Shown here: in pieces, positions 11,591 through 63,962 of the stretch | Layout of the letters: the number at the start of each line of letters is the position of its first letter | Numbering within the stretch: position 1 is the stretch's first letter | The notes under the pieces: generated by a model | Databases searched by the model: none | Seen by the model: the letters and a program-made list of their open reading frames with translations, nothing else | Told to the model about the DNA's origin: nothing | Position numbers and translations under genes: made by a program | NCBI GenBank assembly: GCA_002839375.1 | Contig: PGXY01000002.1 | Location: forward strand, 106,764-170,763 | Length of the DNA: 64,000 bases | Origin: Spirochaetae bacterium HGW-Spirochaetae-1 | GTDB taxonomy: Bacteria; Spirochaetota; UBA4802; UBA5550 | Reading direction: 5' to 3'

Positions 11591-13066
11591 TTATTTTACT
11601 CCGCGTTTCTTGATGATTATGGTGACAGAAACATCGGGCAGAGGTTTTGCTTCGAGACTGATAATTTCAGGAGGAGCTATGACCTTGCATCGAATTGTAG
11701 TGTTCTGGCTGATATTCTGCAGGAAGATGGGGGTCGTGGTGAGGTATATTTCCTCGTTGGAGTTTTTTTCCGTGGCGAGCATTACCTGCAGCTTTTCAGG
11801 CGTAACCTCCACCGATAGAATATCGAGCCCCGCCGGGAGAGCGCCGACCAATTGAGGTTTGATTATGACATCCTGCTGCACAAAGGAATAGAGGTCCACG
11901 TCAAAATTTGACGGTTGGGCATCGATGAGGTTGATATTGTGGTGCAGGTTGATGATGTTCCTGGCCACGGAAATCGTCACTTTTCCCGGTTTTGACTGCT
12001 TCAGGTCCACGGTGGCCTTCAGTTCCTCGGGCCTCACCAGGTTTATCTCCGAGGCCGGTCCTGAGATTTTTATACGTGCAATAATGGGTTTATCGCCGGA
12101 AATGATCATTTTATCGGCAAGCCGGTACTCTATGGGAATGGTAGTGACCAGTTCCTTGGTCTGGCTCACCGTGGCCATAATGGACAGCCATAAAATAAAG
12201 GCCAGCAGAAGGGACAGAGCCCCTTCCAGTACGAGAGACATCTTTTTGCCCTGGGTCTGCTGAAGGGGGGTGAATCCGCCGGCTGTTTTCCAGTGTTCTT
12301 CGATGCGGTCCTGCAGTTCTTTTTCATTTTCCACCAGTTCCACCTGGCCTTCATGAAAAAGGGAGATGACACCCCGTTCCTCGGACACGGTGATTATGAG
12401 TGCATCGGTAGCCTCCGAGAGTCCCAGGGATGCGTGGTGCCGCGTGCCGAATTCATTGTTGTAGCGCGTCGATGTGGAGAGAGGAAGGCGCAGGCCGAAT
12501 GTGGTTATTTCACCGTTTTCAATTACCATGGCGCCGTCATGGCCCGGCGAGTGGTTGTCAAAGATGCTTAGTATGAGGGGAACGCTGGGCCTGCCATTCA
12601 TGTGAATCCCGCCCGAAACCTTCGAATTGATGGAATCCCTGCCGGGAAGAATGATGATGGCTCCCAGCTTGCCGGCCGCCATCTGGAATACCGATTCACA
12701 GATTAGCAGCGATAGATGGTTCCCCTCGGAGAGAGTTTTTCGGATTTTCAGGGTCGATGCTGTTCTTTCGAATATTTTCCTTATCTCGGGCTGAAAGATG
12801 ATGATAAGGGCGATGAGCGCAATATTGCTCACATTGTTGAACAGCCAGGAAAGACCGCTGAAACTGAAAAGGCGCGCCATGGAGTAGATGAAGAGGATTA
12901 CCCCGATCCCCATGCCGATTCTCCATGATCCCGAGCTCTTCAGCGTCCTGTACAGGATGAGAACCATGAGCGCCATGATGGGGACGTCAAAGAAGGTCCT
13001 CCAGTCAATGAAACTGATTATGATATTAATGTACTGTGATAGTATATGCATGGCGTTTATCAACAA
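11591..13066 (-). CDS. cdaA: Diadenylate cyclase CdaA (DisA_N) fused to a C-terminal YbbR/CdaR-like domain
   Basis: Three N-terminal TM helices, IIIFQPEIRK, HDGAM (DGA motif), GTRHHA (RHR position), VSEERG; then another TM helix and a YbbR-like segment (VRPEELKATVDL...PGKVTI). Confidence 0.85.
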   Translation of the reverse strand: MLINAMHILSQYINIIISFIDWRTFFDVPIMALMVLILYRTLKSSGSWRIGMGIGVILFIYSMARLFSFSGLSWLFNNVSNIALIALIIIFQPEIRKIFERTASTLKIRKTLSEGNHLSLLICESVFQMAAGKLGAIIILPGRDSINSKVSGGIHMNGRPSVPLILSIFDNHSPGHDGAMVIENGEITTFGLRLPLSTSTRYNNEFGTRHHASLGLSEATDALIITVSEERGVISLFHEGQVELVENEKELQDRIEEHWKTAGGFTPLQQTQGKKMSLVLEGALSLLLAFILWLSIMATVSQTKELVTTIPIEYRLADKMIISGDKPIIARIKISGPASEINLVRPEELKATVDLKQSKPGKVTISVARNIINLHHNINLIDAQPSNFDVDLYSFVQQDVIIKPQLVGALPAGLDILSVEVTPEKLQVMLATEKNSNEEIYLTTTPIFLQNISQNTTIRCKVIAPPEIISLEAKPLPDVSVTIIIKKRGVK

Positions 13067-13225
13067 GGTACAACATCAGTGTGGTCAAGAAATTTTTCAA
13101 CAGTATTTTTATTCCAGGGATGTTTTAAGGTGTTTATTTTTCGCGATTGACATGGTGATCTATAGGGATATACATATTGCAATTAATAATGGCGGTATTG
13201 TTTGTTGCATCGGGAGGTTTCTGAC

Positions 13226-14239
13226 ATGAAAATAAAGAATATTCTCACGGTACTGGGCAACGGGGATCTGATGCGCATGATCCCCTTCCTTGGAGACTGG
13301 AAAGCCTTCGTCCGGTGGCAGTTTTTATACGCAGTCATAGAAAGCGGGCTCCTGGATATTCTGGACAGGGGGCTTACACGAGATGAGATCATGGAGGAAT
13401 CGGGTGTTCGGCGTGCCGATATCCTTGACGCGCTTCTTGATCTGGGATGCGCGCTGCGTGAACTTTCTCTAAAAAAAGGTCGTTATTACGTAAAGGGAAA
13501 ACGTCTCAAGAATCTTCTGGGAGGGAAAGGTGACTGCAACCGGGCCCTCATCGAAGCGGGCTCCACCTATTACAGTGACATTTACCGGAAGGCGGGAAAT
13601 CGGCTTCGCGGTGAGGGGAACGGTCCCTACCTGGAAGAGGCCGGGCCCATAATCGCTCGATGGGGAAAGCTGCTGGAACCGATGATAAAGACTTTTGTCG
13701 TGCAAACCTTTACCGGGAGAGGGGAACTTAAAACACTTGATGTGGGCTGCGGCTCGGGGAATAACCTGAAACTGGCTCATTCGGTCAATGAGGGTGTTTA
13801 CGGCATGGGCATCGATTATGATGAAAACGTAGTAAGTCAGGCCGCGGCAAATATGAGAGACTGGCGGATGGACAATCAATTTGCTGTCACGGGGGGTGAT
13901 ATCCGCACGCCGTCCACAGAGCTTGGCCATGAATACGATATAATAACAATGTATAATGTTGTTTATTATTTCACTGTTGAAGAACGAAAACAGGTGTTCA
14001 GTAACATCCGGGCCATGCTCCGGGAGAACGGTGAGCTGGCTATTGTAAATTCATTCAATACCAGAAAAAACGGCTGGGGAACTTCCAATCTTAATATGGC
14101 CGTTACATCCATACAGGGATGCTATCCGCTTCCCCGTCTGGACGAGACGCATCGGTTTCTTGAGGAAGCGGGCTTTAATAGGATAACGGTTGAGCAGCTT
14201 GTTCCAGGCGACGCCTTCTATGGCATAACAGCAAAATAG
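13226..14239 (+). CDS. Class I SAM-dependent methyltransferase with N-terminal winged-helix domain
   Basis: LDVGCGSG, GIDYD, YDIITMYNVVYY and LRENGELAI. ATG 13226 follows a GGGAGG RBS (track start 13202). Confidence 0.85.
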   Translation: MKIKNILTVLGNGDLMRMIPFLGDWKAFVRWQFLYAVIESGLLDILDRGLTRDEIMEESGVRRADILDALLDLGCALRELSLKKGRYYVKGKRLKNLLGGKGDCNRALIEAGSTYYSDIYRKAGNRLRGEGNGPYLEEAGPIIARWGKLLEPMIKTFVVQTFTGRGELKTLDVGCGSGNNLKLAHSVNEGVYGMGIDYDENVVSQAAANMRDWRMDNQFAVTGGDIRTPSTELGHEYDIITMYNVVYYFTVEERKQVFSNIRAMLRENGELAIVNSFNTRKNGWGTSNLNMAVTSIQGCYPLPRLDETHRFLEEAGFNRITVEQLVPGDAFYGITAK

Positions 14240-14280
14240 ATGATGGTCAGGTTGTATCAAAGGGGGTTAGAGCCTCATAA

Positions 14281-14979
14281 TCAGATAAACAGGATTGAAC
14301 CCAAATCTATAGCGGTTTCACCGGAAAGGTATATGATTTTTTTCCCCGTGTTCTCAATAAATGATACAATCTGGTCCTCGTCGGGGTGACTGCGCAGTGT
14401 TCCCGTCAGATATACCGTATTTCCCGCGGTGCCCGAGGCCCCTCCAAGAAAACCATAACGGTAACCGGGGAGGGTGACATGGCCCGGGTTTATGAGAAGC
14501 GAAGTGATACCCGCCTTTTCAGCCTCGGCATGAATGGAACGGTCAGCCGTAATAATATGATCCTCATCGACAATGAGCGTGGAACATCGTGAGTAGCCCT
14601 GTTTAACATTATGGAGTGTGATTTTCTGGTCTGCCAGGTATTCTTTGATGCGAGGCTCTGTCCCCTCAATGCGGTGGAATGCCGCTTTTCCCGTACAGGC
14701 AATATTATAAGGTATATCTTCCGGATATGCCGGTCCCGGGACGGTTTCACACAGGGTGATGCGGCCATATTTGCCCAGTTCATGCAGAAACGACGGGGTC
14801 AGAGCCCTGTGGCAGAAGATATTCCCATTGTGTGTAAATATCTGAATGTCGGGATGCCCTGAGATGGGGCGGGAAACGCCGTCAAAATGCGGAACAGTCA
14901 GGGCTCTGACCCCCAGTTTTTTCAAATTATGAACTATTACTGCCGGTGTATCAGGATTTATTAATGCTGTTTTCATCAA
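14281..14979 (-). CDS. DUF6873 / GME-fold (amidinotransferase-like) protein
   Basis: HPDIQI, YPEDIPYN, VKQGYSRCST, ITAD, GFLGGASG and DLGSI. Confidence 0.7.
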   Translation of the reverse strand: MMKTALINPDTPAVIVHNLKKLGVRALTVPHFDGVSRPISGHPDIQIFTHNGNIFCHRALTPSFLHELGKYGRITLCETVPGPAYPEDIPYNIACTGKAAFHRIEGTEPRIKEYLADQKITLHNVKQGYSRCSTLIVDEDHIITADRSIHAEAEKAGITSLLINPGHVTLPGYRYGFLGGASGTAGNTVYLTGTLRSHPDEDQIVSFIENTGKKIIYLSGETAIDLGSILFI

Positions 14980-15126
14980 GAGAGCCTTGTATATTAAATT
15001 ACATATTAAAATACAATCTTTTTAAAAACCTATAAATAAAAAAACCTTGTCATTATATGGAAGGTTCATTGTATATTATAGTACATATATTTGTCGTCAA
15101 TTCTTTCAATAAAAGAGATTCTATGC

Positions 15127-16896: not shown

Positions 16897-16912
16897 CAGG
16901 ATAATACAGAAC

Positions 16913-18169
16913 GTGTTATATCGGGATATTCATGACAGGGTATTACGCTTTCTCGAAGAAAGCAAGCCTCGCTATCTTCACATACTGGAGGAGATGGTAT
17001 CCATCAATTCCTGGACTGAAAACCGTGAAGGGGTCAGAGCCCTGGGTGAATACACGGCTGATCTCTTTGCCGGTCTGGGATTTACCCCGGAGTTTGTTCC
17101 TTCCCGGAATCCCCTTTACGGCAGTCACGTGATACTCACCAGGAAAGGTTCGGGCAGGGCATCCATATCGTGCGTGTCTCACCTTGATACGGTTTTTCCC
17201 CCCGGGGAAGAGCAGAGTCATGATTTTCATTTTCGCCTCGAAGGCGACAGTGCCTCGGGACCGGGGACCAGCGATATCAAGGGCGGGACCCTGGTAATGT
17301 TCATGATGCTCGAATCCCTCAGTCATGAAGTTCCTTCACTGTTTGAGTCCGTGAACTGGAAGCTGTTTTTCGACGCCTCGGAAGAGACCACATCCGATGA
17401 TTTCGGCACGTTCTGTCTCGACAATATGGATGCCGGTACCCTGGCATGTCTCATCTTTGAGGCCGATGGCGGCCGCATCGATGAATTCTCCCTGGTTACC
17501 TCGCGCAAGGGCAGGGCCGTTTTCACCATTGAATCTTTTGGCAGGGCGGCCCATGCCGGTTCGGCGCATAAAAGCGGCGCCAATGCCATCGTGCATCTCT
17601 GCGGAATTATAGAAAGGGCCGCGGCCCTGACGGATTATGAAAGAGGAATCACCGTGAATGTGGGCATGATCTCGGGAGGTATGGCCCTCAACCGTGTCCC
17701 CGATTATGCAGCAGCGCAGGTTGAGATGCGGGCCCATGACGAATCTGTGTTCAGGGAGTCCGTGGACGCCATGATGTCCCTGGCGGGCTCTGACCCTTCC
17801 GGGGGAAAAAGCCTTTCATGCACGGCAAAGATCAGCCTGGATCGCCGGGTTCCGTCATGGCCGGGAAATGAAAGAACGGATCATCTCTTTTCGGTCTGGG
17901 AGGAGGCTGCTTCTGTCGCGGGGATGCGGATCGTTCCTGAACAGCGAGGGGGCCTCAGTGACGGGAACTGGCTCTGGCATCGCGTGCCTGCAATCGACGG
18001 CCTGGGACCCCTGGGCGGCAATGAGCACTGTTCAGGAGGCCCCGGTAAAGACCGTATCGGGCAGGAATTTGTCATCACCGGTTCCCTGGCGCCCAAGGCG
18101 GCCTTAAATGCCCTGGCCCTGGTTATTTTGCTGCAGTCATCATCTGCGGGGTCAGAGCCCCCGGCATAG
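16913..18169 (+). CDS. M20 family metallopeptidase (carboxypeptidase G2-like)
   Basis: SHLDTVF, GPGTSDIKGG, DASEE, GRAAHAG, VNVGMISGG, GGLSDGN, IDGLGPLGG and EH. Confidence 0.88.
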   Translation: MLYRDIHDRVLRFLEESKPRYLHILEEMVSINSWTENREGVRALGEYTADLFAGLGFTPEFVPSRNPLYGSHVILTRKGSGRASISCVSHLDTVFPPGEEQSHDFHFRLEGDSASGPGTSDIKGGTLVMFMMLESLSHEVPSLFESVNWKLFFDASEETTSDDFGTFCLDNMDAGTLACLIFEADGGRIDEFSLVTSRKGRAVFTIESFGRAAHAGSAHKSGANAIVHLCGIIERAAALTDYERGITVNVGMISGGMALNRVPDYAAAQVEMRAHDESVFRESVDAMMSLAGSDPSGGKSLSCTAKISLDRRVPSWPGNERTDHLFSVWEEAASVAGMRIVPEQRGGLSDGNWLWHRVPAIDGLGPLGGNEHCSGGPGKDRIGQEFVITGSLAPKAALNALALVILLQSSSAGSEPPA

Positions 18170-18222
18170 TAAATATCGGGGCGCCGGAAATATCATGCTC
18201 TGATTTGCCCGGCCTTTTTTGC

Positions 18223-19260
18223 TCACCACCGGTTTCTGACTTCCTCGGCAAATCCGGGAAAGCGTTCCAGGGCTATCACCGTCCCGTTATCGAGCGTCAC
18301 AGTGCCGGTGTACCAGCCGAATACCTGGTGCTGTATCGATGAAATAAGGCCCAGGTTGAAATAGCTTTCCCTGTCCAGGGCCGGCTCAAAATCAAGTTCA
18401 AAGCGGCCGTCATTACTGGTGAATTTCCAGGGCTTCATGAAATCATTAGCGTCGAAGTGGAAGGTGACCTGGTTCAGCTTGTGACCTTTTCCCTCATAAA
18501 AGAGGATGTTTTCCGAAGCGGGGCTTCTGTCGCTGAAACCGTACCCGATGTTCCATCCCAGGGACTTGCCGTTGACAGTGCCCGAGGCCGAGCCCCAGTA
18601 CCAGGTGTTTTTGTATGTCCAGTTGCCGCGGCCCCAGTCGAGGCAGCCGAAGGAGTTGGTCGGCGAGAAGGTGAATATCCTGGTGCCCATGGTGACCGTT
18701 CCTTCGGCGGGCATGCAGTTGATTTTCTGGTTATAATAGAAGGCCTTTCGATTTTCGGCCCATGACGTGGCGATGACCATGCTGTCCATGTCCGGGTCCT
18801 GTTGAAGGACCAGGCGGGCCTTTAGTCCCCGGTCGCCGTAGGGCGATTCAAAGGACGGCACATCAACGGATATGATTCTTTTATTGTCCCTGATCCCGAA
18901 TTCCACGGTCATTTTTTTATCACTGAAATAGAGGTCGCCGCTTTTCGACGACGGAGGGAATCCCATGCGGCCCCGTGTCATGAGCCGGATGGTGTCGAGC
19001 TGTTTATAGGTACCGGCTTTGAAATCAACCCAGCATACGGCGACCAGCGCGGCAAAGCTCAGGTCAGACATGGTAACGGTGAGACCGTATCCGCCATCCT
19101 GGGAAATCACGGCATAATAGTCCCATTCCTTGATGCGGTGCCACGGTGCCCTGACTTTACGGCGGTCATAGTTCCACCAGGGTTTGCGTGCCCAGCCTTC
19201 GCCGGTCAGTGTGCCGTCATCTTTCAGCAGTTCCAGTGGGCCCGTTATTTCTTTCTGCAT
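18223..19260 (-). CDS. DUF2804 family protein
   Basis: RIKEWDYY, FYYNQKINCMPA, DWGRGNW, GWNIGYGF and QHQVFG. Confidence 0.88.
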   Translation of the reverse strand: MQKEITGPLELLKDDGTLTGEGWARKPWWNYDRRKVRAPWHRIKEWDYYAVISQDGGYGLTVTMSDLSFAALVAVCWVDFKAGTYKQLDTIRLMTRGRMGFPPSSKSGDLYFSDKKMTVEFGIRDNKRIISVDVPSFESPYGDRGLKARLVLQQDPDMDSMVIATSWAENRKAFYYNQKINCMPAEGTVTMGTRIFTFSPTNSFGCLDWGRGNWTYKNTWYWGSASGTVNGKSLGWNIGYGFSDRSPASENILFYEGKGHKLNQVTFHFDANDFMKPWKFTSNDGRFELDFEPALDRESYFNLGLISSIQHQVFGWYTGTVTLDNGTVIALERFPGFAEEVRNRW

Positions 19261-19288
19261 GAATATCTCCTTAATAATTTAATGAATG

Positions 19289-21058: not shown

Positions 21059-21081
21059 ATCCGACTGTTTGCCCTGTTCCT

Positions 21082-23103: not shown

Positions 23104-23205
23104 AATGTATATCGGTCAGTTGTCAAGCTGAGTATATAATTAATATCACCTTTACTAAACCGGGGCTCTGACCCCGGATTTCAAATCAGCAGGGGAGGCA
23201 GGGCT

Positions 23206-25017
23206 ATGGCGGATAATAAGAACGGGTCATTTTTAAGCAGAAAGTCCTTTATTAAAAAATCGGCACTCATCGCAGCTTCAGCGGCCCTGCCGGGTCTTTT
23301 GGCCTGCGGCAGGAATGGAACATCATATTCAACAAAAACGCCGGACTTTTCAGGCTTCGACCGTCTCATGGCGGGGAAAAGGGAGCGTCTTGCCGTAGCT
23401 GACCGGGGTTCCATGCTGCTTCTGAAAAACGGTATTATCGTGGACGGTTCCGGTGCCGGGGCCTACAGGGGGGATCTCCTTATTTCGGGAAATAGAATTG
23501 AAATGGTGACGGCCAAAGACCTGGATTTCCGGGGTCAGAGCCTTGACTGTACCGGCATGGTTATAGCACCGGGATTTATCGATATGCATGCCCACCAGGA
23601 CTTTGTGTTTCCGGTAAAAAATGCCGATCGTCATTTCATTCCTTATATCAGGCAGGGAGTGACCACCTTTTTTTGCGGCAACTGCGGTTTCAGCGCGGCA
23701 GGATTTAAAAAGAAGAGCCCCTTCAAATCGAAGATCGAAGGATTCACGAAGCTTTTTTCCGGCAGCGAATATACCTTTGCGTGGGAATCCATGGATGAGT
23801 ATCAAAGATATCTGCGGGGGAAGGGGACTCTGCAGAATATGCTGATGCTGGCCGGTGATGGTACGACCAGGATATCCCTCCAGGGCTACAGTCCCCGGGC
23901 CATGACGAGCGCCATGAAGAAGGAATATCTCTATCTCATGGAAGAGGCCATGGAGCAGGGGGCCAGGGGAGCATCCCTGGGGCTCCAGTATGAGCCGGGC
24001 ATCTTTGCCACTGATGAAGATCTCTATGACCTGGCCAGGCTTGTTAAAAAGCATGACAAGGTGCTCACGGTTCATATGAAGGCCTATTCGGCCCTGTCGC
24101 CCACCTATCCCCTCAATCCCTTTGGCGAGTCACATAACCTCATAGCCCTGAAGGAGATGCTGAAAATAGCCGGGGACACGGGAGTGCGCCTCCAGGCCTC
24201 GCATCTCATATTCGTGGGAGAAAAATCCTTTGATACCTGCTCTCGGGCCCTGGAACTCATTGATGAGGCCCGGTCAAAAGGCACGGACGTGATGTTCGAT
24301 ACCTATGCCTACAATTGCGGAATATCCAAGATTAATGTTTTTATGCCCAAGTGGTTTCTCGAAAAAACACCTGCCGCATTCACTGACAGGGGAGACCTGC
24401 TGCGGCTCAGGGCGGAACTGGAGCTCATAACCTTTCTTCTCGGTTTCGGTATGGAGGATATAAGAATTACCAACGCGCTTGTTCCGGAATACAATGACTG
24501 CAACGGCATGTTCATTCACGAGATCGCTGAAAAAAAGAATATGAGCAGCTTTGAAGTATTTGTCGATCTGGCCAGGAAATCAGGGGGCGAGGCTCATGTG
24601 CTGAACAGCCGGTACAGCTCGCAGGAAAATGTCATGGATATGATGCGACATCCCCAGTCAATTTTTATGACCGATGCCACGGTGATGGGGGAAGGGGTGC
24701 AGAACCCCGCGGCTTTCGGCAATTTCCCCCGGTTCCTTCAGCTGGCCCGGGACTATGGCCATGTGTCACTGGAACAGGTTGTTCGCAAAATGACCGGGGC
24801 CTCGGCACAACAGTTTGGCCTTAAGGACAGGGGGCTGCTGAAAAAGGGATATGCCGCCGATATCACCGTGTTTGACTGGAAGAATATCGCCGATAACAAT
24901 GTGGCAGGAAAAACCGATCAGTCCCCGCGGGGGATAGGCACGGTAATTGTAAACGGCACACCGGTTCTGAAAAACGGCATACCCGTGGTGAACCGTAAAC
25001 CGGGGATGGTCCTGTAG
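23206..25017 (+). CDS. N-acyl-D-amino acid deacylase family amidohydrolase, probably a Tat-exported lipoprotein
   Basis: SRKSFIK Tat-like motif and LLAC lipobox; PGFIDMHAHQD, GNCG, TVHMK, SHL and MTD match the D-aminoacylase metal ligands. Confidence 0.85.
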   Translation: MADNKNGSFLSRKSFIKKSALIAASAALPGLLACGRNGTSYSTKTPDFSGFDRLMAGKRERLAVADRGSMLLLKNGIIVDGSGAGAYRGDLLISGNRIEMVTAKDLDFRGQSLDCTGMVIAPGFIDMHAHQDFVFPVKNADRHFIPYIRQGVTTFFCGNCGFSAAGFKKKSPFKSKIEGFTKLFSGSEYTFAWESMDEYQRYLRGKGTLQNMLMLAGDGTTRISLQGYSPRAMTSAMKKEYLYLMEEAMEQGARGASLGLQYEPGIFATDEDLYDLARLVKKHDKVLTVHMKAYSALSPTYPLNPFGESHNLIALKEMLKIAGDTGVRLQASHLIFVGEKSFDTCSRALELIDEARSKGTDVMFDTYAYNCGISKINVFMPKWFLEKTPAAFTDRGDLLRLRAELELITFLLGFGMEDIRITNALVPEYNDCNGMFIHEIAEKKNMSSFEVFVDLARKSGGEAHVLNSRYSSQENVMDMMRHPQSIFMTDATVMGEGVQNPAAFGNFPRFLQLARDYGHVSLEQVVRKMTGASAQQFGLKDRGLLKKGYAADITVFDWKNIADNNVAGKTDQSPRGIGTVIVNGTPVLKNGIPVVNRKPGMVL

Positions 25018-25538: not shown

Positions 25539-25752
25539 CGTTTCCTGTTATAAGGCGCTCTGTCCCCACTGTCAAGCCATTGATTTTTGTCAAGATAAAT
25601 AAAAAAAATTGAGTTTTTTTAGATTTAATTAATTGGTTAAAAAGTTAACTAAACATAGTAATTATTATTGACAACTTTTTGATTTTATTGTTTATTATAA
25701 TTGATCGATTAGTTAATGTACATATCGATATTTATAATGTCGGGGATAAATT

Positions 25753-51488: not shown

Positions 51489-54110
51489 ATGAAACAAACC
51501 GGTGAAAAGAGGATACTCAGAAGTGACTATAAGGAACCGAATTTTCTCATACCCCAAATCGATCTGACATTCAACCTCCATGACTCCAGTACCATGGTAA
51601 CCAATATGATGGAGATCATACGGAATGGTCATGGAAGCGATCCCCTGGTACTCAATGGGGAAAAACTGAAACTGCTCTCCGTGGAGATTGACGGCCGCAC
51701 CATGGATGCTTCAGAGTATGATGCCACGGAGGCTTCTCTGGTTATTACGGATGTCCCGGACCGGTTTACCCTGAAGCTGGCTACGGAAATAAATCCTCGT
51801 GATAACCAGGCTCTGGAGGGACTGTATAAATCGGGAAAGGTTTTCTGCACCCAGAACGAGCCCGAGGGATTCCGTAAAATCACCTTTTTCATCGATCGGC
51901 CCGATGTTATGAGCCGGTTTACTACTAAAATTATTGGCGACTCGAAAAGTTGTCCCGTCCTTCTGGCCAACGGCAACCTCGTTGAGGAGGTAAGCCTGGG
52001 CGACGGCAGACACTGGGTCAAATGGGAGGACCCCTTTCCCAAGCCGGCCTATCTCTTTGCCCTGGTGGCGGGGGACCTGGGACTGGTACGCGATAGCTTT
52101 ACCACCATGTCGGGGCGCACTGTCGATCTTCGCATCTACTGCGATCCCGGCAATGAATCCCGCTGTTATCACGCCATGGAGTCCCTGAAAAAGGCCATGA
52201 AGTGGGACGAGGAGCGTTTTGGTCTGGAATACGACCTGGATATCTACATGATCGTGGCTGTGGATACCTTTAACATGGGAGCCATGGAAAACAAGGGTCT
52301 CAATGTATTCAATTCACACTATGTTCTGGCCAACCCGGAAACGGCCACGGATACCAATTATCTCGGCATCGAGAGTGTCATCGCCCATGAGTATTTTCAC
52401 AACTGGACCGGGAACCGAGTTACTCTCAGGGACTGGTTTCAACTGACCCTGAAGGAGGGACTCACGGTATTCCGCGACCAGGAATTCTCCTCGGATATCC
52501 AGTCCAGGCCCGTGCAGAGAATCCTCGATGTCAACGGTCTGAGAACCGTTCAGTTCACCGAGGATGCCGGTCCCAACGCCCATCCCATCCGGCCCGACAG
52601 CTATCTGGAGATAAATAATTTTTATACGGCCACGGTCTATGAAAAGGGAGCCGAGGTCATCAGGATGATACATACCATCCTGGGAGAGGAGGGCTTTCAA
52701 AAGGGGATGTGGCGATATTTTGAGCTCCATGACGGTCATGCCGTGACCTGCGATGATTTTGTACATGCCATGGAATCAGCGACCGATACGGACCTGGCAC
52801 AGTTCAGGCTCTGGTACAGCCGGGCCGGGACGCCTGTCCTGGCCATTGAGACCGGATATGATCAGGAAAAAAGGCAGTATGCCATTACCGTGCGTCAGGA
52901 TATTCCCCGGGAGCAGAACCGGGAAGACACGGGCCCCATGCACATGCCCCTGGCCGTGGGACTTCTGGATGCCCGTGGCCGGGATATGCTGGGCGAAGAC
53001 GGTACGGTCGTGCTGCAGATAAGGGAGCGTGAGGAACGCTTTGTTTTCGAGGGAATAAATGAGAAGCCCGTGCCCTCGCTTAACAGGAACTTTTCCGCTC
53101 CGGTAAGAATCGATTATGCCTGGTCTCATGAAGAACTCAAACTTTTATTCATGCGCGACAGCGATGCCTTCAACCGGTGGGACGCGGGACAGGTAGTAAC
53201 CAGGGGAATCCTGAAGGACTATGTGACGGCCATTCAACGGGGAGTATCATGCTCCATGAACGAGGACATAGCCCCAGTCTTCGGGGCTATTATCGATGAT
53301 GAGGCTATGGATAAAAATTTCAAGGCCCTTATGCTGGAGCTCCCTTATGAATCAATCCTGGTGCAGGAGTACAGTCCCGTTGACTTTAATGCCATACATG
53401 AAGCACGGAATTGTCTCAGGCGGGAAATGGGATGTTCATTCAGAGACGGGTTTCACCGCATGTTCATGTCACTGGAAGGAAAAGGGGAATTTTCCCTGAG
53501 CATGGAGGCCATGGGGAAACGGGCTTTGCGCCTGCGCGCCCTGGACTATCTCGTTGAGACCGGTGAGGATGAATTTCTCGCGCTCTGTCACGATCTCTAT
53601 GAAAAAGCGGGAAACATGACCGATGCCCTGGGTGCACTCTCCCTGTTGGCCGGAACGGACAACTCCTACAGGGACAGAGCCCTGACGCATTTTTATGAAA
53701 AATGGAAACATGACCAGGTGGTTATTACCAAGTGGTTTTCCGTACAGTCCCTTTCGGGGCTTCCCGGGACGCTTGAGCGGGTGAAAGAGCTCGAGGCTGA
53801 TCCCGCCTATGACATTAAAGTCCCCAACCTGGTGCGTTCCGTTGTGGGAGCCTTTACCCAGAATCTGGTGAATTTTCATCATGAGTCGGGCAGCGGGTAT
53901 GTATATGCAGCGGACCGCATCATGGAGATCGATGCCTTCAATCCATCCATCTCATCAATGCTGGCCAAGGCCTTCAAGCTCTATCCCCGCGTGGATGCGG
54001 GAAGGAAAGAACACATGAAGCGGCAGCTGGAGCGCATAGCCGATCTCGGGGATCTTTCAAAAAACACCCGTGAGATCGTGGAGAAGACCCTGGAGAATTC
54101 CAGTTCCTGA
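51489..54110 (+). CDS. pepN: Aminopeptidase N (M1 family)
   Basis: TQNEPEGFRKIT, GAMENKGLN, HEYFHNWTGNRVT, LKEGLT, YEKGAE and PNLVRS. The likely start is ATG 51489 (track uses 51468). Confidence 0.96.
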   Translation: MKQTGEKRILRSDYKEPNFLIPQIDLTFNLHDSSTMVTNMMEIIRNGHGSDPLVLNGEKLKLLSVEIDGRTMDASEYDATEASLVITDVPDRFTLKLATEINPRDNQALEGLYKSGKVFCTQNEPEGFRKITFFIDRPDVMSRFTTKIIGDSKSCPVLLANGNLVEEVSLGDGRHWVKWEDPFPKPAYLFALVAGDLGLVRDSFTTMSGRTVDLRIYCDPGNESRCYHAMESLKKAMKWDEERFGLEYDLDIYMIVAVDTFNMGAMENKGLNVFNSHYVLANPETATDTNYLGIESVIAHEYFHNWTGNRVTLRDWFQLTLKEGLTVFRDQEFSSDIQSRPVQRILDVNGLRTVQFTEDAGPNAHPIRPDSYLEINNFYTATVYEKGAEVIRMIHTILGEEGFQKGMWRYFELHDGHAVTCDDFVHAMESATDTDLAQFRLWYSRAGTPVLAIETGYDQEKRQYAITVRQDIPREQNREDTGPMHMPLAVGLLDARGRDMLGEDGTVVLQIREREERFVFEGINEKPVPSLNRNFSAPVRIDYAWSHEELKLLFMRDSDAFNRWDAGQVVTRGILKDYVTAIQRGVSCSMNEDIAPVFGAIIDDEAMDKNFKALMLELPYESILVQEYSPVDFNAIHEARNCLRREMGCSFRDGFHRMFMSLEGKGEFSLSMEAMGKRALRLRALDYLVETGEDEFLALCHDLYEKAGNMTDALGALSLLAGTDNSYRDRALTHFYEKWKHDQVVITKWFSVQSLSGLPGTLERVKELEADPAYDIKVPNLVRSVVGAFTQNLVNFHHESGSGYVYAADRIMEIDAFNPSISSMLAKAFKLYPRVDAGRKEHMKRQLERIADLGDLSKNTREIVEKTLENSSS

Positions 54111-54147
54111 CGTAAGGGGAACAGGACGATTTGATACCGCGGTACGC

Positions 54148-56308: not shown

Positions 56309-56329
56309 AGAACACGGCGAACGAATTTT

Positions 56330-57070: not shown

Positions 57071-57073
57071 ACC

Positions 57074-58495
57074 ATGAGAACGGGAAGGCTTTATATAAAG
57101 ATATTTGTTTCTTTCATGGTCCTTCTCCTGATCATGGAATTCTTAATATTTGCCGCCTTCAGGCTGATATTGGGGAATCCCTTTCACGAACGCTTTGAAC
57201 AGTACGTGAATGCCGGGAGTCTGATCATCGGAACCCTGACGGAAGAGGCTCTGACCCTTCCTGGACGTGATCCGGAGAATCCCTATCCAAAACTACGCGA
57301 TCTTTTTACTGAACTGGATAGCCGGTACGGCCTCATGGTTTGGATCGAATCGGGCGGTAAATATATTGTGAAATCCTTCCAGGGAGAGCCGTCTTTCATG
57401 ACACCGGCCCACAGGTCTATAGAAAGGGAGAATTACCGGGTTTCATGGGGAAAGAGAAACGAGAATATCCATATGATTCTTCCTCTTAAAACGGCAACAA
57501 TTGCCAATGCCTCTCTCCATTTATACTACGCACGCCGCGGGGTCAGAGCCTTCGAAAGGGATTTTGCCCTTGCCCTGGCCTTTCTGGGCCTTATAATGGC
57601 GCTTCTCATATTTCCCCTTTCCCGATACATCACGGAACCTCTGAAAAAATTGAAGGCATCGGCTCTCAGGATATCCTGGGGGCGCCTGCAGGAGAGGGTG
57701 CAGGTGCGGGGGAGGGATGAAATAGGTGAACTGGCCGACGCCTTTAATACCATGGCCGAAAAGCTGGAATATATGGTCACGGGGACGAAAATGCTCACGG
57801 CCCATATCTCCCACGAACTGCGTTCTCCCCTGGCCAGGATACGCATTGCCGGGGAACTGCTCGAAGATCGTCTGAAGGGAAACAATACAGGGGCATGTCT
57901 TCCGCTCCTGGAAACGATTAAAGAAGAGATTCAGGATATGGATACGCTCATCGGCCGGATATTGCAGCTGACGAAGATGGATATTCATGGCGCCGAATCA
58001 ATGGAACAATCCTTCGATGCGGCAGCCATGGCCAGGGATGCGGTGAAGCGTTTTGAACCGGTGTTGGAAAGTAGAAGCCTTCATTTCAGTCTTGATATTC
58101 CTGAAGTGCAATTTCTCATGACGGGTGATCCCGATGATATAAAGACTGCATTTAACAACATTATTGACAATGCCGTGAAGTATTCACCCCCCGGGAGCTC
58201 AATACAGATGGAAATGAAGAGAGCGGGAGATGGCATGACGCTCACCGTGAAAAATGACACCCTTTCTCCCGTGGGCACTGATCCGGAAAAACTCCTGCAA
58301 CCCTTCCAGAGAGGAAAGAATGCCGATATACCGGGATACGGGCTGGGACTGGCCATCGTTCAAAAAATTGTGGAAAACCATGGAGGGGCTCTGACCCTCT
58401 ACTGGCGGGAGAACCGTTTTGAGATTTATCTTTCCTTTCCTCTGGAAGCAGTGAACAATGGAAACTCATACAGATACAGAAATGCGGGGAAATAA
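57074..58495 (+). CDS. HAMP-domain sensor histidine kinase (CpxA-like)
   Basis: Two TM helices, HAMP DEIGELADAFN, ISHELRSPLARI, NIIDNAVKY, PFQRG and GLGLAIV. Confidence 0.94.
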   Translation: MRTGRLYIKIFVSFMVLLLIMEFLIFAAFRLILGNPFHERFEQYVNAGSLIIGTLTEEALTLPGRDPENPYPKLRDLFTELDSRYGLMVWIESGGKYIVKSFQGEPSFMTPAHRSIERENYRVSWGKRNENIHMILPLKTATIANASLHLYYARRGVRAFERDFALALAFLGLIMALLIFPLSRYITEPLKKLKASALRISWGRLQERVQVRGRDEIGELADAFNTMAEKLEYMVTGTKMLTAHISHELRSPLARIRIAGELLEDRLKGNNTGACLPLLETIKEEIQDMDTLIGRILQLTKMDIHGAESMEQSFDAAAMARDAVKRFEPVLESRSLHFSLDIPEVQFLMTGDPDDIKTAFNNIIDNAVKYSPPGSSIQMEMKRAGDGMTLTVKNDTLSPVGTDPEKLLQPFQRGKNADIPGYGLGLAIVQKIVENHGGALTLYWRENRFEIYLSFPLEAVNNGNSYRYRNAGK

Positions 58496-58616
58496 ACCCG
58501 GCCAAGAACGATTTTCTTACCGGGATTGCCAATTCCTGCTCATTTTTTGAAAAGGCGGAACAGGAACTGCCCCTGGGACTGGAAAGAAATTTTTTTTAAT
58601 ATTTTACAGTGTTTGG

Positions 58617-58645
58617 TTGCAGAAAACCGCCTTCTATCCTATACT
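58617..58645 (+). promoter_or_regulatory. Sigma70-type promoter for the phosphorylase gene
   Basis: TTGCAG (58617-58622), 17 bp, TATACT (58640-58645). Confidence 0.5.
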
Positions 58646-58707
58646 TACTTTTAGAAGAGAATATAATAAATCGGATTCTGAACGTTAACTGACGTGTAGA
58701 TTATGGT

Positions 58708-60585
58708 ATGGATTATTTTTATCAGGAGAAACAGATGAAAAGGAAGGATGCGCGTCCTTCAAATTTTCATAGTCTGGAGCCCGATTTCAGGCGTCCCCTG
58801 TATCGGCTTCGTGAAGATATTCGCAGCAGAATCTTTTCAATGCTGGTTCAACTCTATGGTGAAACCAAAGCCCGCAGGTATATAAAAGAACTGGAGCGAG
58901 TGATATCGGTCTATCATGCCCACAAGACCGATGAGATGATGGAATGGGAGAGCCATTTCAGACCCGAAGACCGGTTTACAAACGAGGATGCTATCCTGAT
59001 AACCTACGGCAACCTGGTGGTGGACAAACATAAAAAACCACTGAAGACCCTGGACGAGATGTCCCATAAATACCTGAGGGGTGTTTTCAATACTATTCAT
59101 ATCCTGCCCTTTTTCCCGTCTTCGTCGGACCGCGGTTTTGCCATCAGCGACTACCGCCAGGTGGACCCGGATCTGGGTACCTGGGAGGATATCATAGACT
59201 TGAAGAATGATTTTCGCCTCATGTTTGACGGTGTTATCAACCACGTATCTTCCAAGAGCTTCTGGTTCCAGGAATTTCTCAATGGCAACCCGGCCTACCA
59301 GGGATACTTCACTCATTTTCCCGAGCGAAGAAATGTTCCACGGAAAAAGCTGAACAAACTCATGAGGCCCCGTACCAGTGAAGTCCTGACACCATTCCAT
59401 TCGTATAACGGCAGGCGCCTCGTGTGGACAACCTTCAGTCCTGATCAGATCGACCTGAAGTTTCAGAACCCCATGGTGCTCATCAAGATAATAGAAATTC
59501 TCCTGTTTTATATTCGCAGGGGGGCTGATATTATCCGCCTCGACGCCGTCACCTATCTTTGGGACGAATTGGGCACCACGGGCGCAAACCTTTCCCAGAC
59601 CCACACTATCATAAAACTGTTCAGGCTTATCCTCGATGCCGTGGTTCCTCATGTGGCCATTGTCACCGAGACCAATGTGCCTCACAGCGATAACATCACC
59701 TACTTTGGAAGCGGTTATGACGAGGCACAACTGGTGTATAATTTCGCCCTGCCGCCGCTTATCCTTCACACGTTTCATAACAGCACGGCCGCGAAGCTGA
59801 CACAATGGGCTCGTGAATTAAAGAATCCCTCGCTGTATGCCACTTATCTCAATTTTCTCGACAGTCATGACGGGATAGGAGTACTGGGTGCCCGGGAGTT
59901 TCTCACCGATGAGGATATAGAACTCATGGCGGAGCGTGTAACACAGCGCGGGGGGCTGATATCCTATCGGACCGATAAAGATGGAAAAGAATCTATCTAC
60001 GAGCTGAATATCACCTTTTATAGCGCCCTGAACTGTGAGGAGTCCGGAGAGGAAGTGGATTTCCAGGTGAATCGTTATATTGCCGCCCGTTCCATTCCGT
60101 TGGTGATAATCGGTGTTCCGGGGGTGTATCTGCACGGTCTTCTGGGTTCAAAAAACGATATTGAAGCGGTTAAGCATGAAAAGGACAAACGCAGCATCAA
60201 CCGCGATGTTCTCAGCAGAAAAGAACTGGAAAAGGCCATGGAAGATTTTTCAACCACAACGGCCCGGGTAGCCCATCGCCTGTCATTTCTCATACAGAAA
60301 AGGACCAGGGAAAAGGCCTTTCATCCCCAAGGGGGTCAGAGCATACTTACAGTTTCCGATGCAGTTTTTGCCGTCCTCAGAACATCTCCGGACGGCAATG
60401 AAAATATACTGGCAATCACCAGTGTTATACCGGAAAAACAGCAGGTGAAGATTTCCCTGGCTGAATTCATACGTCATCGGAAGTGGGTTGACATCCTCAC
60501 CGGTGACGAATATTTCGTTGCTAATAGTGTATTTACATTGAATCTGGAACCATATGAAGTACTCTGGCTTAAAATGCAGGTTTAA
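58708..60585 (+). CDS. GH13_18 sugar phosphorylase, probably glucosylglycerate phosphorylase
   Basis: HILPFFP, DRGFA, WTTFSPDQIDL, RLDAV, TETNV, DSHDGIG and YELN. Confidence 0.85.
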   Translation: MDYFYQEKQMKRKDARPSNFHSLEPDFRRPLYRLREDIRSRIFSMLVQLYGETKARRYIKELERVISVYHAHKTDEMMEWESHFRPEDRFTNEDAILITYGNLVVDKHKKPLKTLDEMSHKYLRGVFNTIHILPFFPSSSDRGFAISDYRQVDPDLGTWEDIIDLKNDFRLMFDGVINHVSSKSFWFQEFLNGNPAYQGYFTHFPERRNVPRKKLNKLMRPRTSEVLTPFHSYNGRRLVWTTFSPDQIDLKFQNPMVLIKIIEILLFYIRRGADIIRLDAVTYLWDELGTTGANLSQTHTIIKLFRLILDAVVPHVAIVTETNVPHSDNITYFGSGYDEAQLVYNFALPPLILHTFHNSTAAKLTQWARELKNPSLYATYLNFLDSHDGIGVLGAREFLTDEDIELMAERVTQRGGLISYRTDKDGKESIYELNITFYSALNCEESGEEVDFQVNRYIAARSIPLVIIGVPGVYLHGLLGSKNDIEAVKHEKDKRSINRDVLSRKELEKAMEDFSTTTARVAHRLSFLIQKRTREKAFHPQGGQSILTVSDAVFAVLRTSPDGNENILAITSVIPEKQQVKISLAEFIRHRKWVDILTGDEYFVANSVFTLNLEPYEVLWLKMQV

Positions 60586-60696
60586 ATCAGATTTATTATG
60601 CTGGCTCTGACCCCTTGGATCGTTTGGAACTCTGACGGAGGCTCTGACCCCTTGAATTGACGGGAATCCTGTTCTGTAATTATTATAAAGGAGATT

Positions 60697-61656
60697 ATGA
60701 TGATTAGTATTGTGCTTCTTCTCATTGGTTTCGTAATTCTTGTCTACGGGGCTTCCATGATGGTCGATGGCGCTTCTTCACTGGCAAAACGGCTGGATAT
60801 ACCGGTTATCGTTATAGGTCTCACTATTGTGGCATTCGGCACCTCGGCACCGGAGTTGTTTGTCAATGTTTTCGCATCCATGCAGGGCAGAACGGAAATT
60901 ACACTGGGCAATGTCATCGGCAGTAATTTGTTCAATGTTCTCGTTATCGTGGGTATATCCTCTATTATTACGCCCCTGGCTGTGAAAAGAAATACGACAT
61001 GGATTGAGATACCGCTCAGCCTTGCAGCTGCCTTGCTCGTATGGATATGTGTCAATGATGCTGTCCTGGATAATCGTAATTTTTCCGAGATTTCCAGAAT
61101 AGATGGCATTGTCTTTCTTTTCTTTTTCACCATTTTTATGGTCTATAATTATTATTTATCTAAAAAGGGTGATGAGCAGAGTGACTTTGAAATAGGCGAA
61201 TATACATTGCTCCGATCCATTGTGATGATAATTGCAGGATTTGCCGGTCTAGCCGGGGGTGGTCATCTTATTGTGGAATCATCCGTAGAGCTGGCAAGGC
61301 TGGCAGGATTAACTGAACGTGTCATCGGTCTTACTATCGTTTCAGTCGGAACATCGCTCCCGGAACTGGCCACCTCGGTGGTGGCCGCCCGCAAGGGAAA
61401 CGTAGATCTTGCCATTGGTAATGTGGTAGGATCAAATATATTTAATATTTTCTTTATTCTCGGCATATCTGCGGTTATTCATCCCGTACCCCTAAACAGC
61501 GGGGCGAGCGGTGATATCCTGATTAATATCCTGGCCGGGATTTTTCTATTTCTTTTCATTTTTACCGGAAAGGGACGGCACATTGAGCGCTTCGAAGGGA
61601 TATTCTTGCTTTGTATCTATGTCTCTTATATGGGATACGTACTTTATGCTATGTGA
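60697..61656 (+). CDS. yrbG: Calcium/sodium antiporter (CaCA, YrbG-like)
   Basis: Alpha repeats GLTIVAFGTSAPE...GNVIGSN and GLTIVSVGTSLPE...GNVVGSN. Confidence 0.92.
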   Translation: MMISIVLLLIGFVILVYGASMMVDGASSLAKRLDIPVIVIGLTIVAFGTSAPELFVNVFASMQGRTEITLGNVIGSNLFNVLVIVGISSIITPLAVKRNTTWIEIPLSLAAALLVWICVNDAVLDNRNFSEISRIDGIVFLFFFTIFMVYNYYLSKKGDEQSDFEIGEYTLLRSIVMIIAGFAGLAGGGHLIVESSVELARLAGLTERVIGLTIVSVGTSLPELATSVVAARKGNVDLAIGNVVGSNIFNIFFILGISAVIHPVPLNSGASGDILINILAGIFLFLFIFTGKGRHIERFEGIFLLCIYVSYMGYVLYAM

Positions 61657-61754
61657 TTTCCCAGGGGTCAGAGCCTTGATAGGCTCCAGGACGTGATTCT
61701 AAGTAACAAGGGGCTCTGTCCCTTCTCTCGTGATTTTTTAAAGGATCCCCGTCC

Positions 61755-62639
61755 TTAATGGGAGGACGTCATGGATGCATGGACCACGATAATGATATCG
61801 GCAGTTCCACGGTATTGTTCTTCAAGCATATCAAGAGAGCCCTGTGTGACGGTATTTATCGTGGTGATACTCAAATCACCATGATTTTTTTTCAGATACC
61901 AGATGATTCCTTCATTGTAATTGGAGTGATATGACCCGTTAAAATGGATAAAGGTCTGACCCTTCCGTAGATTTTTCCCTATGAACCAGGCCATGGTAGC
62001 ATCCTTCAGCGCCTGGGCTTCGGCCAGATATCCTTTCGTGTGCACAGCAATATGGGTGGGGTCAGAGCCTCCCAGTTTTTCCGTAATTTCCCTATATGAT
62101 TTAAGATTACTATCGAAAGGGATAGGCAGGGGCGCTATGTACTGTCTGGCCTGAACCGGGAGTTCCTGCAGGGCCTCGAAGCCATTTTTGAATACCATGG
62201 ATGCATAGCGGCGCGGAACGTTGGTGGCAATGAAGGGATATTTATTGTCCCGGGCGAATTGCAGGAGAGGCCTGTAATCTGTCTTATAATTAGGCCATAA
62301 TCGAGCTTCCTCTTCGAATCTGGAGTCGGTGATAAGTCCTGCCAGATATTCGTCAATGCTGAGCTGGTTGTCGCTTTCCATCATTTCAGCGCCAAGAATC
62401 ATCTTATGGCCTGCAATATATAGATCTTTAATAAGCTCCAGTTCCAGCCAATGCGCAATAGGATTGTTGTGCAGTTCACCGAAGAATACTATATCGGCAT
62501 TCTGTGCGCGGACCAGCAAATCGGTATAAAGGGCTCTGTCCCCGTTTCCTGAAAAAAGGCGATATGCCGGTTTATCTTGGGGAAGTAGAGGGGTCAGAGC
62601 CGTTACGCATAGCAGTGTTATTAATACTGTTTTCTTCAT
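61755..62639 (-). CDS. chaN: ChaN family (haem-uptake/Tiki-like) exported protein
   Basis: DIVFFGELHN, LGAEMME, WPNYKTDYRPL, ATNVPRR, AQALKDATMA and HFNGSYHS. Confidence 0.82.
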   Translation of the reverse strand: MKKTVLITLLCVTALTPLLPQDKPAYRLFSGNGDRALYTDLLVRAQNADIVFFGELHNNPIAHWLELELIKDLYIAGHKMILGAEMMESDNQLSIDEYLAGLITDSRFEEEARLWPNYKTDYRPLLQFARDNKYPFIATNVPRRYASMVFKNGFEALQELPVQARQYIAPLPIPFDSNLKSYREITEKLGGSDPTHIAVHTKGYLAEAQALKDATMAWFIGKNLRKGQTFIHFNGSYHSNYNEGIIWYLKKNHGDLSITTINTVTQGSLDMLEEQYRGTADIIIVVHASMTSSH

Positions 62640-62762
62640 ATCATCAACCTGGCATTCATTAACCTTTATCCGGGAAATTCAAGTATAGTAATTACTATGG
62701 ATAACTGATGAATATATCAGTTACAAAATAAAGAAGAGAGACAGTTGCGGTGATAATAGATG

Positions 62763-63962
62763 TTATTTGACGTCGGGTTCATTCTCCGGCGGTTCATGCC
62801 CGGTAATGGCCTCAAATATCCTCGTAGCAACAGGAGGACATCCTTTAACAAAGGTATATTTATCCGAATGCAATCGTGCACAGTTGCCTATAAGGACAGT
62901 CCCTTCACGGATATCTTTTTCAGTCACCCCCTTGCCAATTGCCAGTGCAAGGGTTTTATCATCGGGAATATATTGCTCCATATCCTTTTTGAATCTCTTC
63001 AGGAAAAGCATGACTGTGGACAGGCAGGCGCTGCATGAATCGATATCAACAAGCTCCACGTCGGGATATTCAATTGATATATCCTTCGGCGGGTCGCGGT
63101 ATTCAGTGATATATTCCTGGTAATTTTCCGGTATAACATGATAACCCCCTGCCTCAGGGGACAGACCCAGACGTTCAGCAATCAGACGCAGGTGCGGGAT
63201 ATCGCCAGGTTTTTTTCCCATGAGGGTGGCGCCGATGATATCTGCACCCAGGGGATGGGCAGACGCCAGGGCGAAATTTGAGTGTACCGGATCGCCTCCC
63301 GAAGGCCCTAGGCCATCCATGCCAATGTATCCGTCAATAACCGTAATGTCGGGCAGCAGTATTGTGGCCATGTCTGATATAGCCAGATCCAGGGTTTTTT
63401 CCTGATGCTCTGACCCCGGACGCCATTCAAGTTGATGATACCGGATCTTTTCCCGGCGGTACAGACAGCCCTTCATATTTTTTATTCCCAGGGTGACGCC
63501 GGTGTGCATGTGACATTTTGCTACGGGCAGTGAAAGGAGGATATCAAACTTGTAGATTGTACTGCATATTTTGGTGTTGTCCAGAACCAGTCCATGAGGA
63601 ATCTCTTTCGTGATAAAATCACGTGCATCCATATCGATAAGTTCACAGTCATACTTCTCTGCTACATCTGAAATGCCTGAAAGAGAAAAAGCCTTCGTCA
63701 CATCGACGCCTACAATGGGGCTTTCACCAATGGCGATTTTTCCGGCACCACCGAGTCTGAGGGCCTCGATAACGCCAGCAACGGCATCGGGATGTGTGTT
63801 GATTCCCTTGCCTGGACCCACCATGCGGCCTATGTTTGGTTTGATGAGAACTGATTTACCCCGAAATATGGAAGTATCAATTTTCATCATTGCCTGCCGG
63901 GCGTTCTCCAAAGGGCCATGGCCTGCGATAACAAATACATCTTTATCAGTAAATGCTTTCAT
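62763..63962 (-). CDS. DUF362 domain protein with Cys-rich (probable Fe-S) C-terminus
   Basis: VLIKPN, THPD, IAIGES, KCHMHTGVTLGIKNMKG, GPSGG; CSAC, GNC and KGCPP. Confidence 0.85.
   Translation of the reverse strand: MKAFTDKDVFVIAGHGPLENARQAMMKIDTSIFRGKSVLIKPNIGRMVGPGKGINTHPDAVAGVIEALRLGGAGKIAIGESPIVGVDVTKAFSLSGISDVAEKYDCELIDMDARDFITKEIPHGLVLDNTKICSTIYKFDILLSLPVAKCHMHTGVTLGIKNMKGCLYRREKIRYHQLEWRPGSEHQEKTLDLAISDMATILLPDITVIDGYIGMDGLGPSGGDPVHSNFALASAHPLGADIIGATLMGKKPGDIPHLRLIAERLGLSPEAGGYHVIPENYQEYITEYRDPPKDISIEYPDVELVDIDSCSACLSTVMLFLKRFKKDMEQYIPDDKTLALAIGKGVTEKDIREGTVLIGNCARLHSDKYTFVKGCPPVATRIFEAITGHEPPENEPDVK

Follow-up and report, generated by a model that had tools for sequence, protein, structure and literature searches.

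We describe a 64,000-nt stretch of DNA (hereafter ‘the window’) from an uncultured groundwater spirochaete, Spirochaetae bacterium HGW-Spirochaetae-1 (contig PGXY01000002.1), in which a short word recurs in patches, and beside which lies a gene for a predicted transposase of the RAYT (REP-associated tyrosine transposase) family, where REP denotes repetitive extragenic palindromic sequences; we propose that the word is probably the recognition word of that family. By ‘word’ we mean the 12-base GGGGTCAGAGCC, with the consensus R-GGG-W-CAGAGC-C-Y-Y and a 10-nt core, GGGWCAGAGC, that exists as a T-form or an A-form.

A pattern search of both strands finds 23 exact copies of the core in the window, 17 in the T-form and six in the A-form, with 11 on the plus strand and 12 on the minus; seven lie at 12.2-18.2 kb, three at 23.1-25.6 kb and 13 at 53.7-63.4 kb, with none in 1-12 kb or 25.6-53.6 kb. 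Number, forms, strands, coordinates and patchy spread all reproduce a count made by eye in an earlier note on this DNA, which had also placed the total far above chance (~0.24 expected). Our backgrounds bear this out: dinucleotide shuffles yield a mean of 0.20 copies of the core and a maximum of two, and a third-order Markov model predicts 0.06 copies of the T-form 10-mer where 17 are seen (a ~280-fold excess) and ~0.004 of the 12-mer GGGGTCAGAGCC where 12 are seen (~3000-fold). Long open reading frames (ORFs) hold 17 of the 23 copies (74%), ten in sense and seven in antisense orientation, and in all three phases. A polar motif of the Chi or KOPS (FtsK-orienting) kind, which the note had already thought a poor fit, is rejected, because the strands carry 11 and 12 copies although GC skew is uniformly positive across the window. 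So, too, is the assembly artefact against which the note had cautioned: the identical sequence (0 differences) was assembled in one JGI and one ENA metagenome assembly, three runs yielded it in their Logan contigs, and two related species have conserved the sites.

Comparisons rest on several further loci. L001-L003 are 100% identical to the window and uninformative for strain comparison (an apparently split M20 peptidase gene in L001 is only a gene-calling difference). Recovered through the M20 peptidase were L004, a relative at 96.6% nucleotide identity, and L005/L006, at 88%; L141 is the orthologue of window positions 53-74 kb (91.4% nucleotide identity). To extend the map beyond the window we used L136 and L137, which match it with 0 mismatches over overlaps of 11,238 and 11,012 bp; positions out there are given as window equivalents. 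Logan contigs of four groundwater runs, checked for inversions and excisions as assembled contigs only, have no joints at copies of the word.

A position matrix of 34 copies is conserved only at R GGG W CAGAGC C Y Y; beyond the core, aligned copies agree solely at the R (position -1) and at the C-Y-Y that follows. Since nothing outside these positions is common to the copies, the word is a bare 12-13-nt unit and is not a longer element of which only part can be recognised. A Tn3-type inverted repeat (GGGGTC...) was rejected, with only 12 nt conserved and no Tn3 transposase present. Across 83.5 kb there are 34 exact copies and 18 with one mismatch, the latter a modest excess over the 7.6 expected; because one-mismatch copies are so few beside exact ones, the copies appear to be actively held at consensus. 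A tRNA scan of the window returned none, an Rfam search of the window and 10 loci gave no family match, and a literature search with the word in either orientation matched only eukaryotic primers, sequences printed solely in figures being such as would escape it.

The copies and associated sites are listed here with the basis for each in brackets, in order of position, through the 12-26 kb region (‘cluster A’) to the 53-64 kb cluster.

11374..11385, minus strand: one-mismatch copy GGGGTCAGACCC (pattern search)
12211..12220, plus: A-form copy in CdaA-YbbR gene, antisense (present in L004; L005 differs at four core and four flank bases, no indel)
14263..14274, plus: degenerate copy GGGGTTAGAGCC in the gap between two convergent genes (orthologous site in L004 and L005 has an intact GGGGTCAGAGCC)
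14655..14664, minus: A-form copy in DUF6873 gene, sense (no gap in the homologue alignment; conserved in L004 and L005)
14796..14805, plus: copy in DUF6873 gene, antisense (compared with L004/L005; homologue alignment)
14903..14912, minus: copy in DUF6873 gene, sense, encoding GVRAL (compared with L004/L005; homologue alignment)
17031..17040, plus: copy in M20 peptidase gene, sense, GVRAL against the homologues' GVNxL (one mismatch in L005)
17787..17796, minus: copy in M20 peptidase gene, antisense (compared with relatives and homologues)
18149..18158, plus: copy at 3' end of M20 peptidase gene (compared with relatives and homologues)
23165..23174, minus: intergenic copy with complementary flanks, divergent promoter region of TetR and amidohydrolase genes (folds at z -3.6)
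23532..23541, plus: copy in amidohydrolase gene, sense (compared with relatives)
25557..25566, minus: intergenic A-form copy (L005 has a second direct copy 58 bp away; unit-length indel between direct copies)
53671..53680, plus: A-form copy in aminopeptidase N gene, sense (pattern search)
57248..57257, minus: copy in histidine kinase gene, antisense (conserved in L141)
57540..57549, plus: copy in histidine kinase gene, sense (compared with L141)
58388..58397, minus: copy in histidine kinase gene, antisense (compared with L141)
60333..60342, plus: copy in alpha-amylase-family gene, sense (compared with L141)
60604..60650, minus: two direct intergenic copies, 37 bp apart (60604/60641; the only same-strand neighbours in the window)
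61665..61722, both strands: inverted pair between convergent genes, T-form on plus and A-form on minus (hairpin not significant, z -0.4)
62059..62068, plus: antisense copy in ChaN gene, within a variable-length loop (homologue alignment)
62533..62542, minus: A-form copy in ChaN gene, sense (gapless against homologues)
62591..62600, plus: copy in signal-peptide region of ChaN gene, antisense (homologue alignment)
63407..63416, minus: copy in DUF362 gene, sense (compared with L141)
63963..64000, minus: first 38 bases of the spacer toward the RAYT gene (L136 overlap)

Two observations concern the genes themselves. The CdaA-YbbR gene (11591-13066, minus strand) is a single ORF of 491 aa that joins the N-terminal transmembrane region of CdaA, a DAC di-adenylate cyclase domain and a YbbR domain, and has the appearance of the cyclase fused to CdaR, which is normally its partner. 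The M20 peptidase (16913-18169) and ChaN (61755-62639) genes have only two or no close relatives (>85%), their next-best matches, at ~50-55% identity, coming from Chloroflexota and Bacteroidota respectively; both may have been horizontally acquired.

The window itself contains no RAYT gene, as the earlier note had said. Extending along the same contig, we found an intact 196-aa ORF (P0266; window-equivalent 64049-64636, minus strand) that begins 49 bp past base 64000, and the link that the note had raised as a possibility, between GGGGWCAG-type motifs and RAYT/TnpA-REP HUH genes, has its counterpart in this word-flanked gene. P0266 has a HUH motif (HIHLLI) and a tyrosine motif (YIGYNPVRKGL), matches Pfam Y1_Tnp at 40.6 bits (cut-off 23) and matches NCBIfam REP_Tyr_transpos with an E-value of 8e-17, its 61.5 bits lying under that model's cut-off of 80. 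The top match of the RAYT family profile is E. coli TnpA-REP (4ER8; E 4.5e-5, residues 1-139 with both motifs), which ranks ahead of the IS200/IS608/ISDra2 transposases; on this basis P0266 is predicted to be a RAYT-type Y1/HUH transposase.

The word brackets this gene. Upstream is an inverted pair, at window-equivalent 64723 and 64751, that folds as DNA into a hairpin of -12.1 kcal/mol (z -5.7), and 10 nt after the stop codon there is a one-mismatch copy, GGGGTCAGAAC (window-equivalent 64025-64035). The same layout recurs at L056, L127, L130, L138-L142 and L071. On metagenome contigs of a sister species, several RAYT paralogues are alike over only ~735 bp and end exactly at words, such that the word forms the inverted ends of a ~735-bp RAYT cassette. 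Values of dS (synonymous divergence) between paralogues run from 0.2 to 1.0, with dN/dS of 0.03-0.06; they are, by these estimates, old and under strong purifying selection. One RAYT copy has been verified in this genome; metagenome sample Ga0209164 has four RAYT loci on four contigs (92-94% amino acid identity), Ga0068714 has two more, and homologues of the L056 RAYT make up a family of >560 proteins, 196 aa long and for the most part spirochaetal, a number of them carrying the name RayT at JGI.

One Spirochaetota metagenome-assembled genome (MAG; HPJ3..., also HOP6...) encodes at least four RAYT family members (P0133, P0139, P0143 and P0153) with 76-81% identity to the L056 protein. At the orthologous sister-species locus (L136 9203-9936 against L141) the cassette has a dS of 0.85 while the flanks keep 91% nucleotide identity, and the sister-species cassette has its nearest counterpart in a paralogue at another locus (L142, dS 0.21), which suggests replacement or conversion among paralogous cassettes. 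L139 and L140 have a common upstream flank and different downstream flanks, a pattern that indicates a rearrangement with its breakpoint at a RAYT copy.

How, then, does the word lie in relation to the gene? We measured its density at seven RAYT loci, in six independent contexts from this and related spirochaetes, all of them found through the protein and not through the word. Density is 2.5 per kb in the first kb from the RAYT gene, ~1 per kb out to 4 kb, 0.6 per kb at 4-5 kb and 0.08-0.23 per kb at 5-10 kb; at L127 no copy is more than ~2 kb away from the gene. Once extended to cover -9.5 to 74 kb, the map has 24 copies around the RAYT gene in 53.7-69.0 kb and ten in 12.2-25.6 kb, and 0 in the remaining 55 kb (-9.5 to 12, 25.6-53.6 and 69-74 kb). 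The distribution is patchy because solo copies pepper a few kb around each RAYT gene, and proximity to RAYT mostly accounts for the patches, cluster A excepted; the gradient points to a cis-limited action of the RAYT enzyme. The earlier note had asked whether density would peak near HUH/RAYT genes, and so it does at all seven loci; its broader suggestion, that a trans-acting factor encoded elsewhere creates, spreads or selects the word locally, is supported by the RAYT gene that adjoins the window and the gradient about it, and does not carry over to cluster A, where no RAYT is near.

Neighbouring copies in the window alternate in orientation at 21 of 22 steps (P ~5.5e-6), the exception being the 60604/60641 tandem. 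The ancestral state of cluster A is perfect alternation, which later gains and losses disturb or restore. Over the next 5 kb (window-equivalent 64723-68948, from L136) only six of 11 steps alternate, and at other RAYT loci ~45% do, with same-orientation runs common. The alternation is real but local; as a general rule it is rejected, not being reproduced outside the window. One idea is that it results from selection against RAYT-mediated excision between same-strand neighbours, an idea weakened by the long same-strand runs in L139.

The intragenic copies bear on how the word arises. We aligned the M20 peptidase (A1), ChaN (A2) and DUF6873 (A3) proteins, whose genes have three copies each, with homologues at 41-59% identity. 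The alignments are gapless at seven of the nine sites, the other two falling in a C-terminal tail and a loop of variable length, and at none of the nine is there a clean insertion of at least 12 nt; residues typical of the family are overridden by the word, with GVRAL in place of the consensus GVNxL and RALTP in place of PDIDS. Because no clean insertion is seen against homologues, intragenic copies arise in place, by substitution and at unchanged length. Lineage-specific gains are few (~5) and consist of substitutions that are clustered. In L004 a copy was gained from GGCGACAGTGCC through two changes, at the 12211 site L005 differs at eight of 18 bases with no indel, and at position 6330 of L141 four adjacent bases differ; the window's own copy at ~14264, intact in L004 and L005, was lost through one C>T change.

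In the relatives the word occupies the same orthologous positions while its flanks diverge: 5 of 330 core positions differ against 119 of 842 in the adjacent flanks (background 8.5-12%), a constraint of about ten-fold, or 3- to 15-fold once ascertainment is allowed for by halving the expectation. The T and A forms have never switched at orthologous sites. Indels are confined to intergenic arrays, where direct copies mark the limits of each and ‘spacer + word’ units are removed or added whole, in lengths of 29-58 bp. At 25557 the L005 difference is 58 bp, at window-equivalent 68.5 kb two units stand against five, and at 60604/60641 there is the 37-bp tandem. Same-strand intergenic arrays have unrelated spacers of 17-45 nt (L141 5951-6120 compared with L136 5381-5446). 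These unit indels, together with the existence of inverted doublets, are what could be expected if each copy were the remnant of a miniature inverted-repeat transposable element, or the footprint of repeated insertion and excision of the cassette; flanks that share nothing beyond 13 nt, and nine intragenic copies of which none is a clean insertion, make this very improbable.

The word is not confined to spirochaetes. When inverted word pairs were sought in one genome per species, at least 120 loci (L007-L126) came up where ~8 are expected by chance; among the matches listed are Massilia, Duganella, Halieaceae, Woeseiaceae, Lysobacterales and Marinomonas, as well as Acidobacteriota, Gemmatimonas, Phycisphaerales, Rhodothermales and one Spirochaetota MAG. 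No inverted pair was found in viral contigs. A variant, GGGGACAGGGCT, has been reported for another spirochaete. In the non-spirochaete copies, from Beta- and Gammaproteobacteria, Acidobacteriota, Gemmatimonadota, Planctomycetota and Rhodothermales, the word supplies the loop and the closing GGG/CCC of a hairpin, within which the 7-nt loop GTCAGAG is conserved while a lineage-specific outer stem covaries (flank pairing 4.96 against 4.13 permuted, +10 sd), and each locus has two inverted hairpin units, which is the anatomy of a REPIN. Clustering the ORFs of L007-L126 yields a single recurrent word-flanked ORF, a Y1_Tnp protein, in L056 (Spirochaetota), L071 (Lysobacterales) and L069 (Betaproteobacteria); the doublets of L071 and L069 flank RAYT genes ~31% identical to the spirochaete RAYT. 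Taken together, this points to what may be an old, pan-bacterial specificity class of RAYT, of which we found no description in the literature.

It is instructive to set this beside known systems, of which REP/REPIN-RAYT pairs are the closest (E. coli REP/BIME with TnpA-REP 4ER8, and Pseudomonas REPINs; PMC3116915, PMC5581495, PMC3479197). By gene-level criteria the spirochaete pair is one of them, with a RAYT in the genome and a repeat that flanks it in inverted orientation. The likeness extends to a short word tied to a Y1/HUH gene, hairpin doublets beside that gene, a transposase under strong purifying selection, and Proteobacteria in which the core sits in true hairpin doublets. The unlikeness is in the copies. 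REPs are defined by a hairpin of 20-40 nt and a GTAG/CGTC tag (PMC3733652); over 98 spirochaete units flank complementarity is 3.46 against 3.39 permuted, no hairpin extends beyond GGG/CCY in the spirochaete copies, and the tag is absent from the matrix of 34 copies. Judged on sequence, then, spirochaete copies lack four defining features of REPs, namely hairpin, tag, extragenic location and spread by insertion; the earlier note, for which classical REPs were too long and too extragenic to fit, was right to doubt them, 17 of 23 copies lying in ORFs. What is conserved here is 12-13 nt, 74% intragenic and of substitutional origin, found within ~5 kb of the gene and not dispersed, with diverged RAYT paralogues in a sister species using one word. 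A local gradient of this kind is not part of the published REP/RAYT picture (PMC3116915, PMC5581495, PMC3733652).

Other comparisons are partial. Intragenic REPs and Rickettsia palindromic elements (PMC3733652) are likewise tolerated inside functional protein-coding genes, and differ in that they insert in-frame residues, whereas here codons are rewritten and the protein keeps its length. With the IS200/IS605 group (IS608 TnpA, ISDra2) the RAYT shares a Y1 HUH transposase of ~150-200 aa and, at ~735 bp, a unit with defined ends in several copies; here, unlike there, a simple 12-nt inverted word takes the place of distinct subterminal hairpins at the ends, the paralogues, with dS of 0.2-1.0, are old and conserved as opposed to recent and identical, and the nearest structural relative by sequence is TnpA-REP. 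Uptake sequences, the DUS of Neisseria and the USS of Pasteurellaceae, resemble the word in being 10-12 nt long, of point-mutation origin, conserved, present on both strands and in all frames, and at times in inverted pairs. Were the word such a sequence, it would accumulate by mutation together with biased uptake and recombination, in agreement with in-place substitution, use of both strands and all open frames, conservation, and some inverted pairs between convergent genes. Uptake words are genome-wide and lineage-specific, whereas this one sits in transposase islands (55 of 83.5 kb have no copy, and density tracks RAYT genes), has an identical core in many phyla and forms the ends of a transposase cassette; we regard this reading, already disfavoured by the earlier note, as scarcely credible on grounds of distribution, cross-phylum core and the RAYT link.

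Synthesising these findings, we propose that the word is the recognition word of this RAYT family, and hence a REP-like repeat, a reading to which we would assign a probability of roughly 0.8; that its copies are generated locally, in a RAYT-dependent manner, we hold with less assurance, as somewhat better than an even bet. Several points weigh against it. Cluster A (12.2-25.6 kb, 10 copies) lies 38-52 kb from the RAYT gene, and tblastn detects no RAYT or RAYT remnant there in this genome, L004 or L005; it could mark a lost cassette, or be older than any cassette. The spirochaete copies have neither the hairpin nor the GTAG/CGTC tag by which REPs are defined, and are mostly intragenic. We know of no HUH enzyme that writes a site into DNA without a change of length. 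Finally, cause and effect could run the other way, in that the cassette may home into clusters of the word that already exist.

In this last alternative the clusters exist for another reason, and the RAYT cassette preferentially inserts next to words already there. IS608 inserts next to a sequence that also flanks its left end. In keeping with such homing, cluster A is dense and conserved with no RAYT or remnant, cassette ends coincide with copies of the word, and the divergence of the RAYT at the orthologous sister-species locus (dS 0.85), well beyond that of its flanks, suggests replacement of a cassette at a fixed site. Set against this, over-representation of the word is left unexplained, in each of the six independent RAYT contexts the gene is at the centre of a cluster, enrichment being steepest over the first kb, and copies at L127 keep to ~2 kb or less from it; we consider reversal distinctly unlikely.

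Returning to the word as a RAYT recognition word, we can sketch how it might work. IS608 TnpA binds and cuts single-stranded DNA at its sites. The RAYT would likewise bind and cut single-stranded DNA at the asymmetric word, rejoining beside it, by analogy with site recognition and single-stranded cutting by TnpA-REP (PMC3479197). It would act mainly near its own gene, and near-cognate sites in tolerant stretches of neighbouring genes would be brought to consensus and kept there. This might come about by either of two routes: (a) RAYT-triggered short-patch copying, with another copy as the source and near-cognate sites as the targets, which would fit both clustered multi-base changes without indels and maintenance at consensus; or (b) ordinary mutation, coupled with selection that favours RAYT-binding sites in the neighbourhood, for instance as a sponge that tames the nuclease. 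We rate conversion and selection about equal, as T and A forms that never switch argue against frequent homogenisation, and multi-base gains argue against purely stepwise selection. Intergenic arrays, for their part, would grow and shrink by ‘spacer + word’ units that lie between direct copies.

The boldest version of route (a), which we put forward tentatively and think improbable, is that a domesticated RAYT ‘writes’ its 12-nt word into near-matching sites around it by nick-triggered, length-preserving short-patch copying, leaving one conserved island per RAYT; alternation and direct-copy indels would then be by-products of RAYT-mediated excision between same-strand neighbours. If true, such writing would mean that a repeat can multiply in a way not described before, by seeding in place and not by transposition.

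We are not aware of any demonstration that a RAYT moves a REP in vivo. An in-place origin contradicts the usual view of REPs as inserted miniature transposons, and replacements of the GVRAL type mean that intragenic copies override amino acids preferred by the family. In annotation, words of this kind can also lead k-mer-based searches for methylation motifs, Chi sites or uptake sequences astray. With its hairpin-less 12-nt word, spatial gradient and orthologous sites at 3-12% divergence, this lineage offers a clean handle on the role of RAYTs and on the multiplication of REPs.

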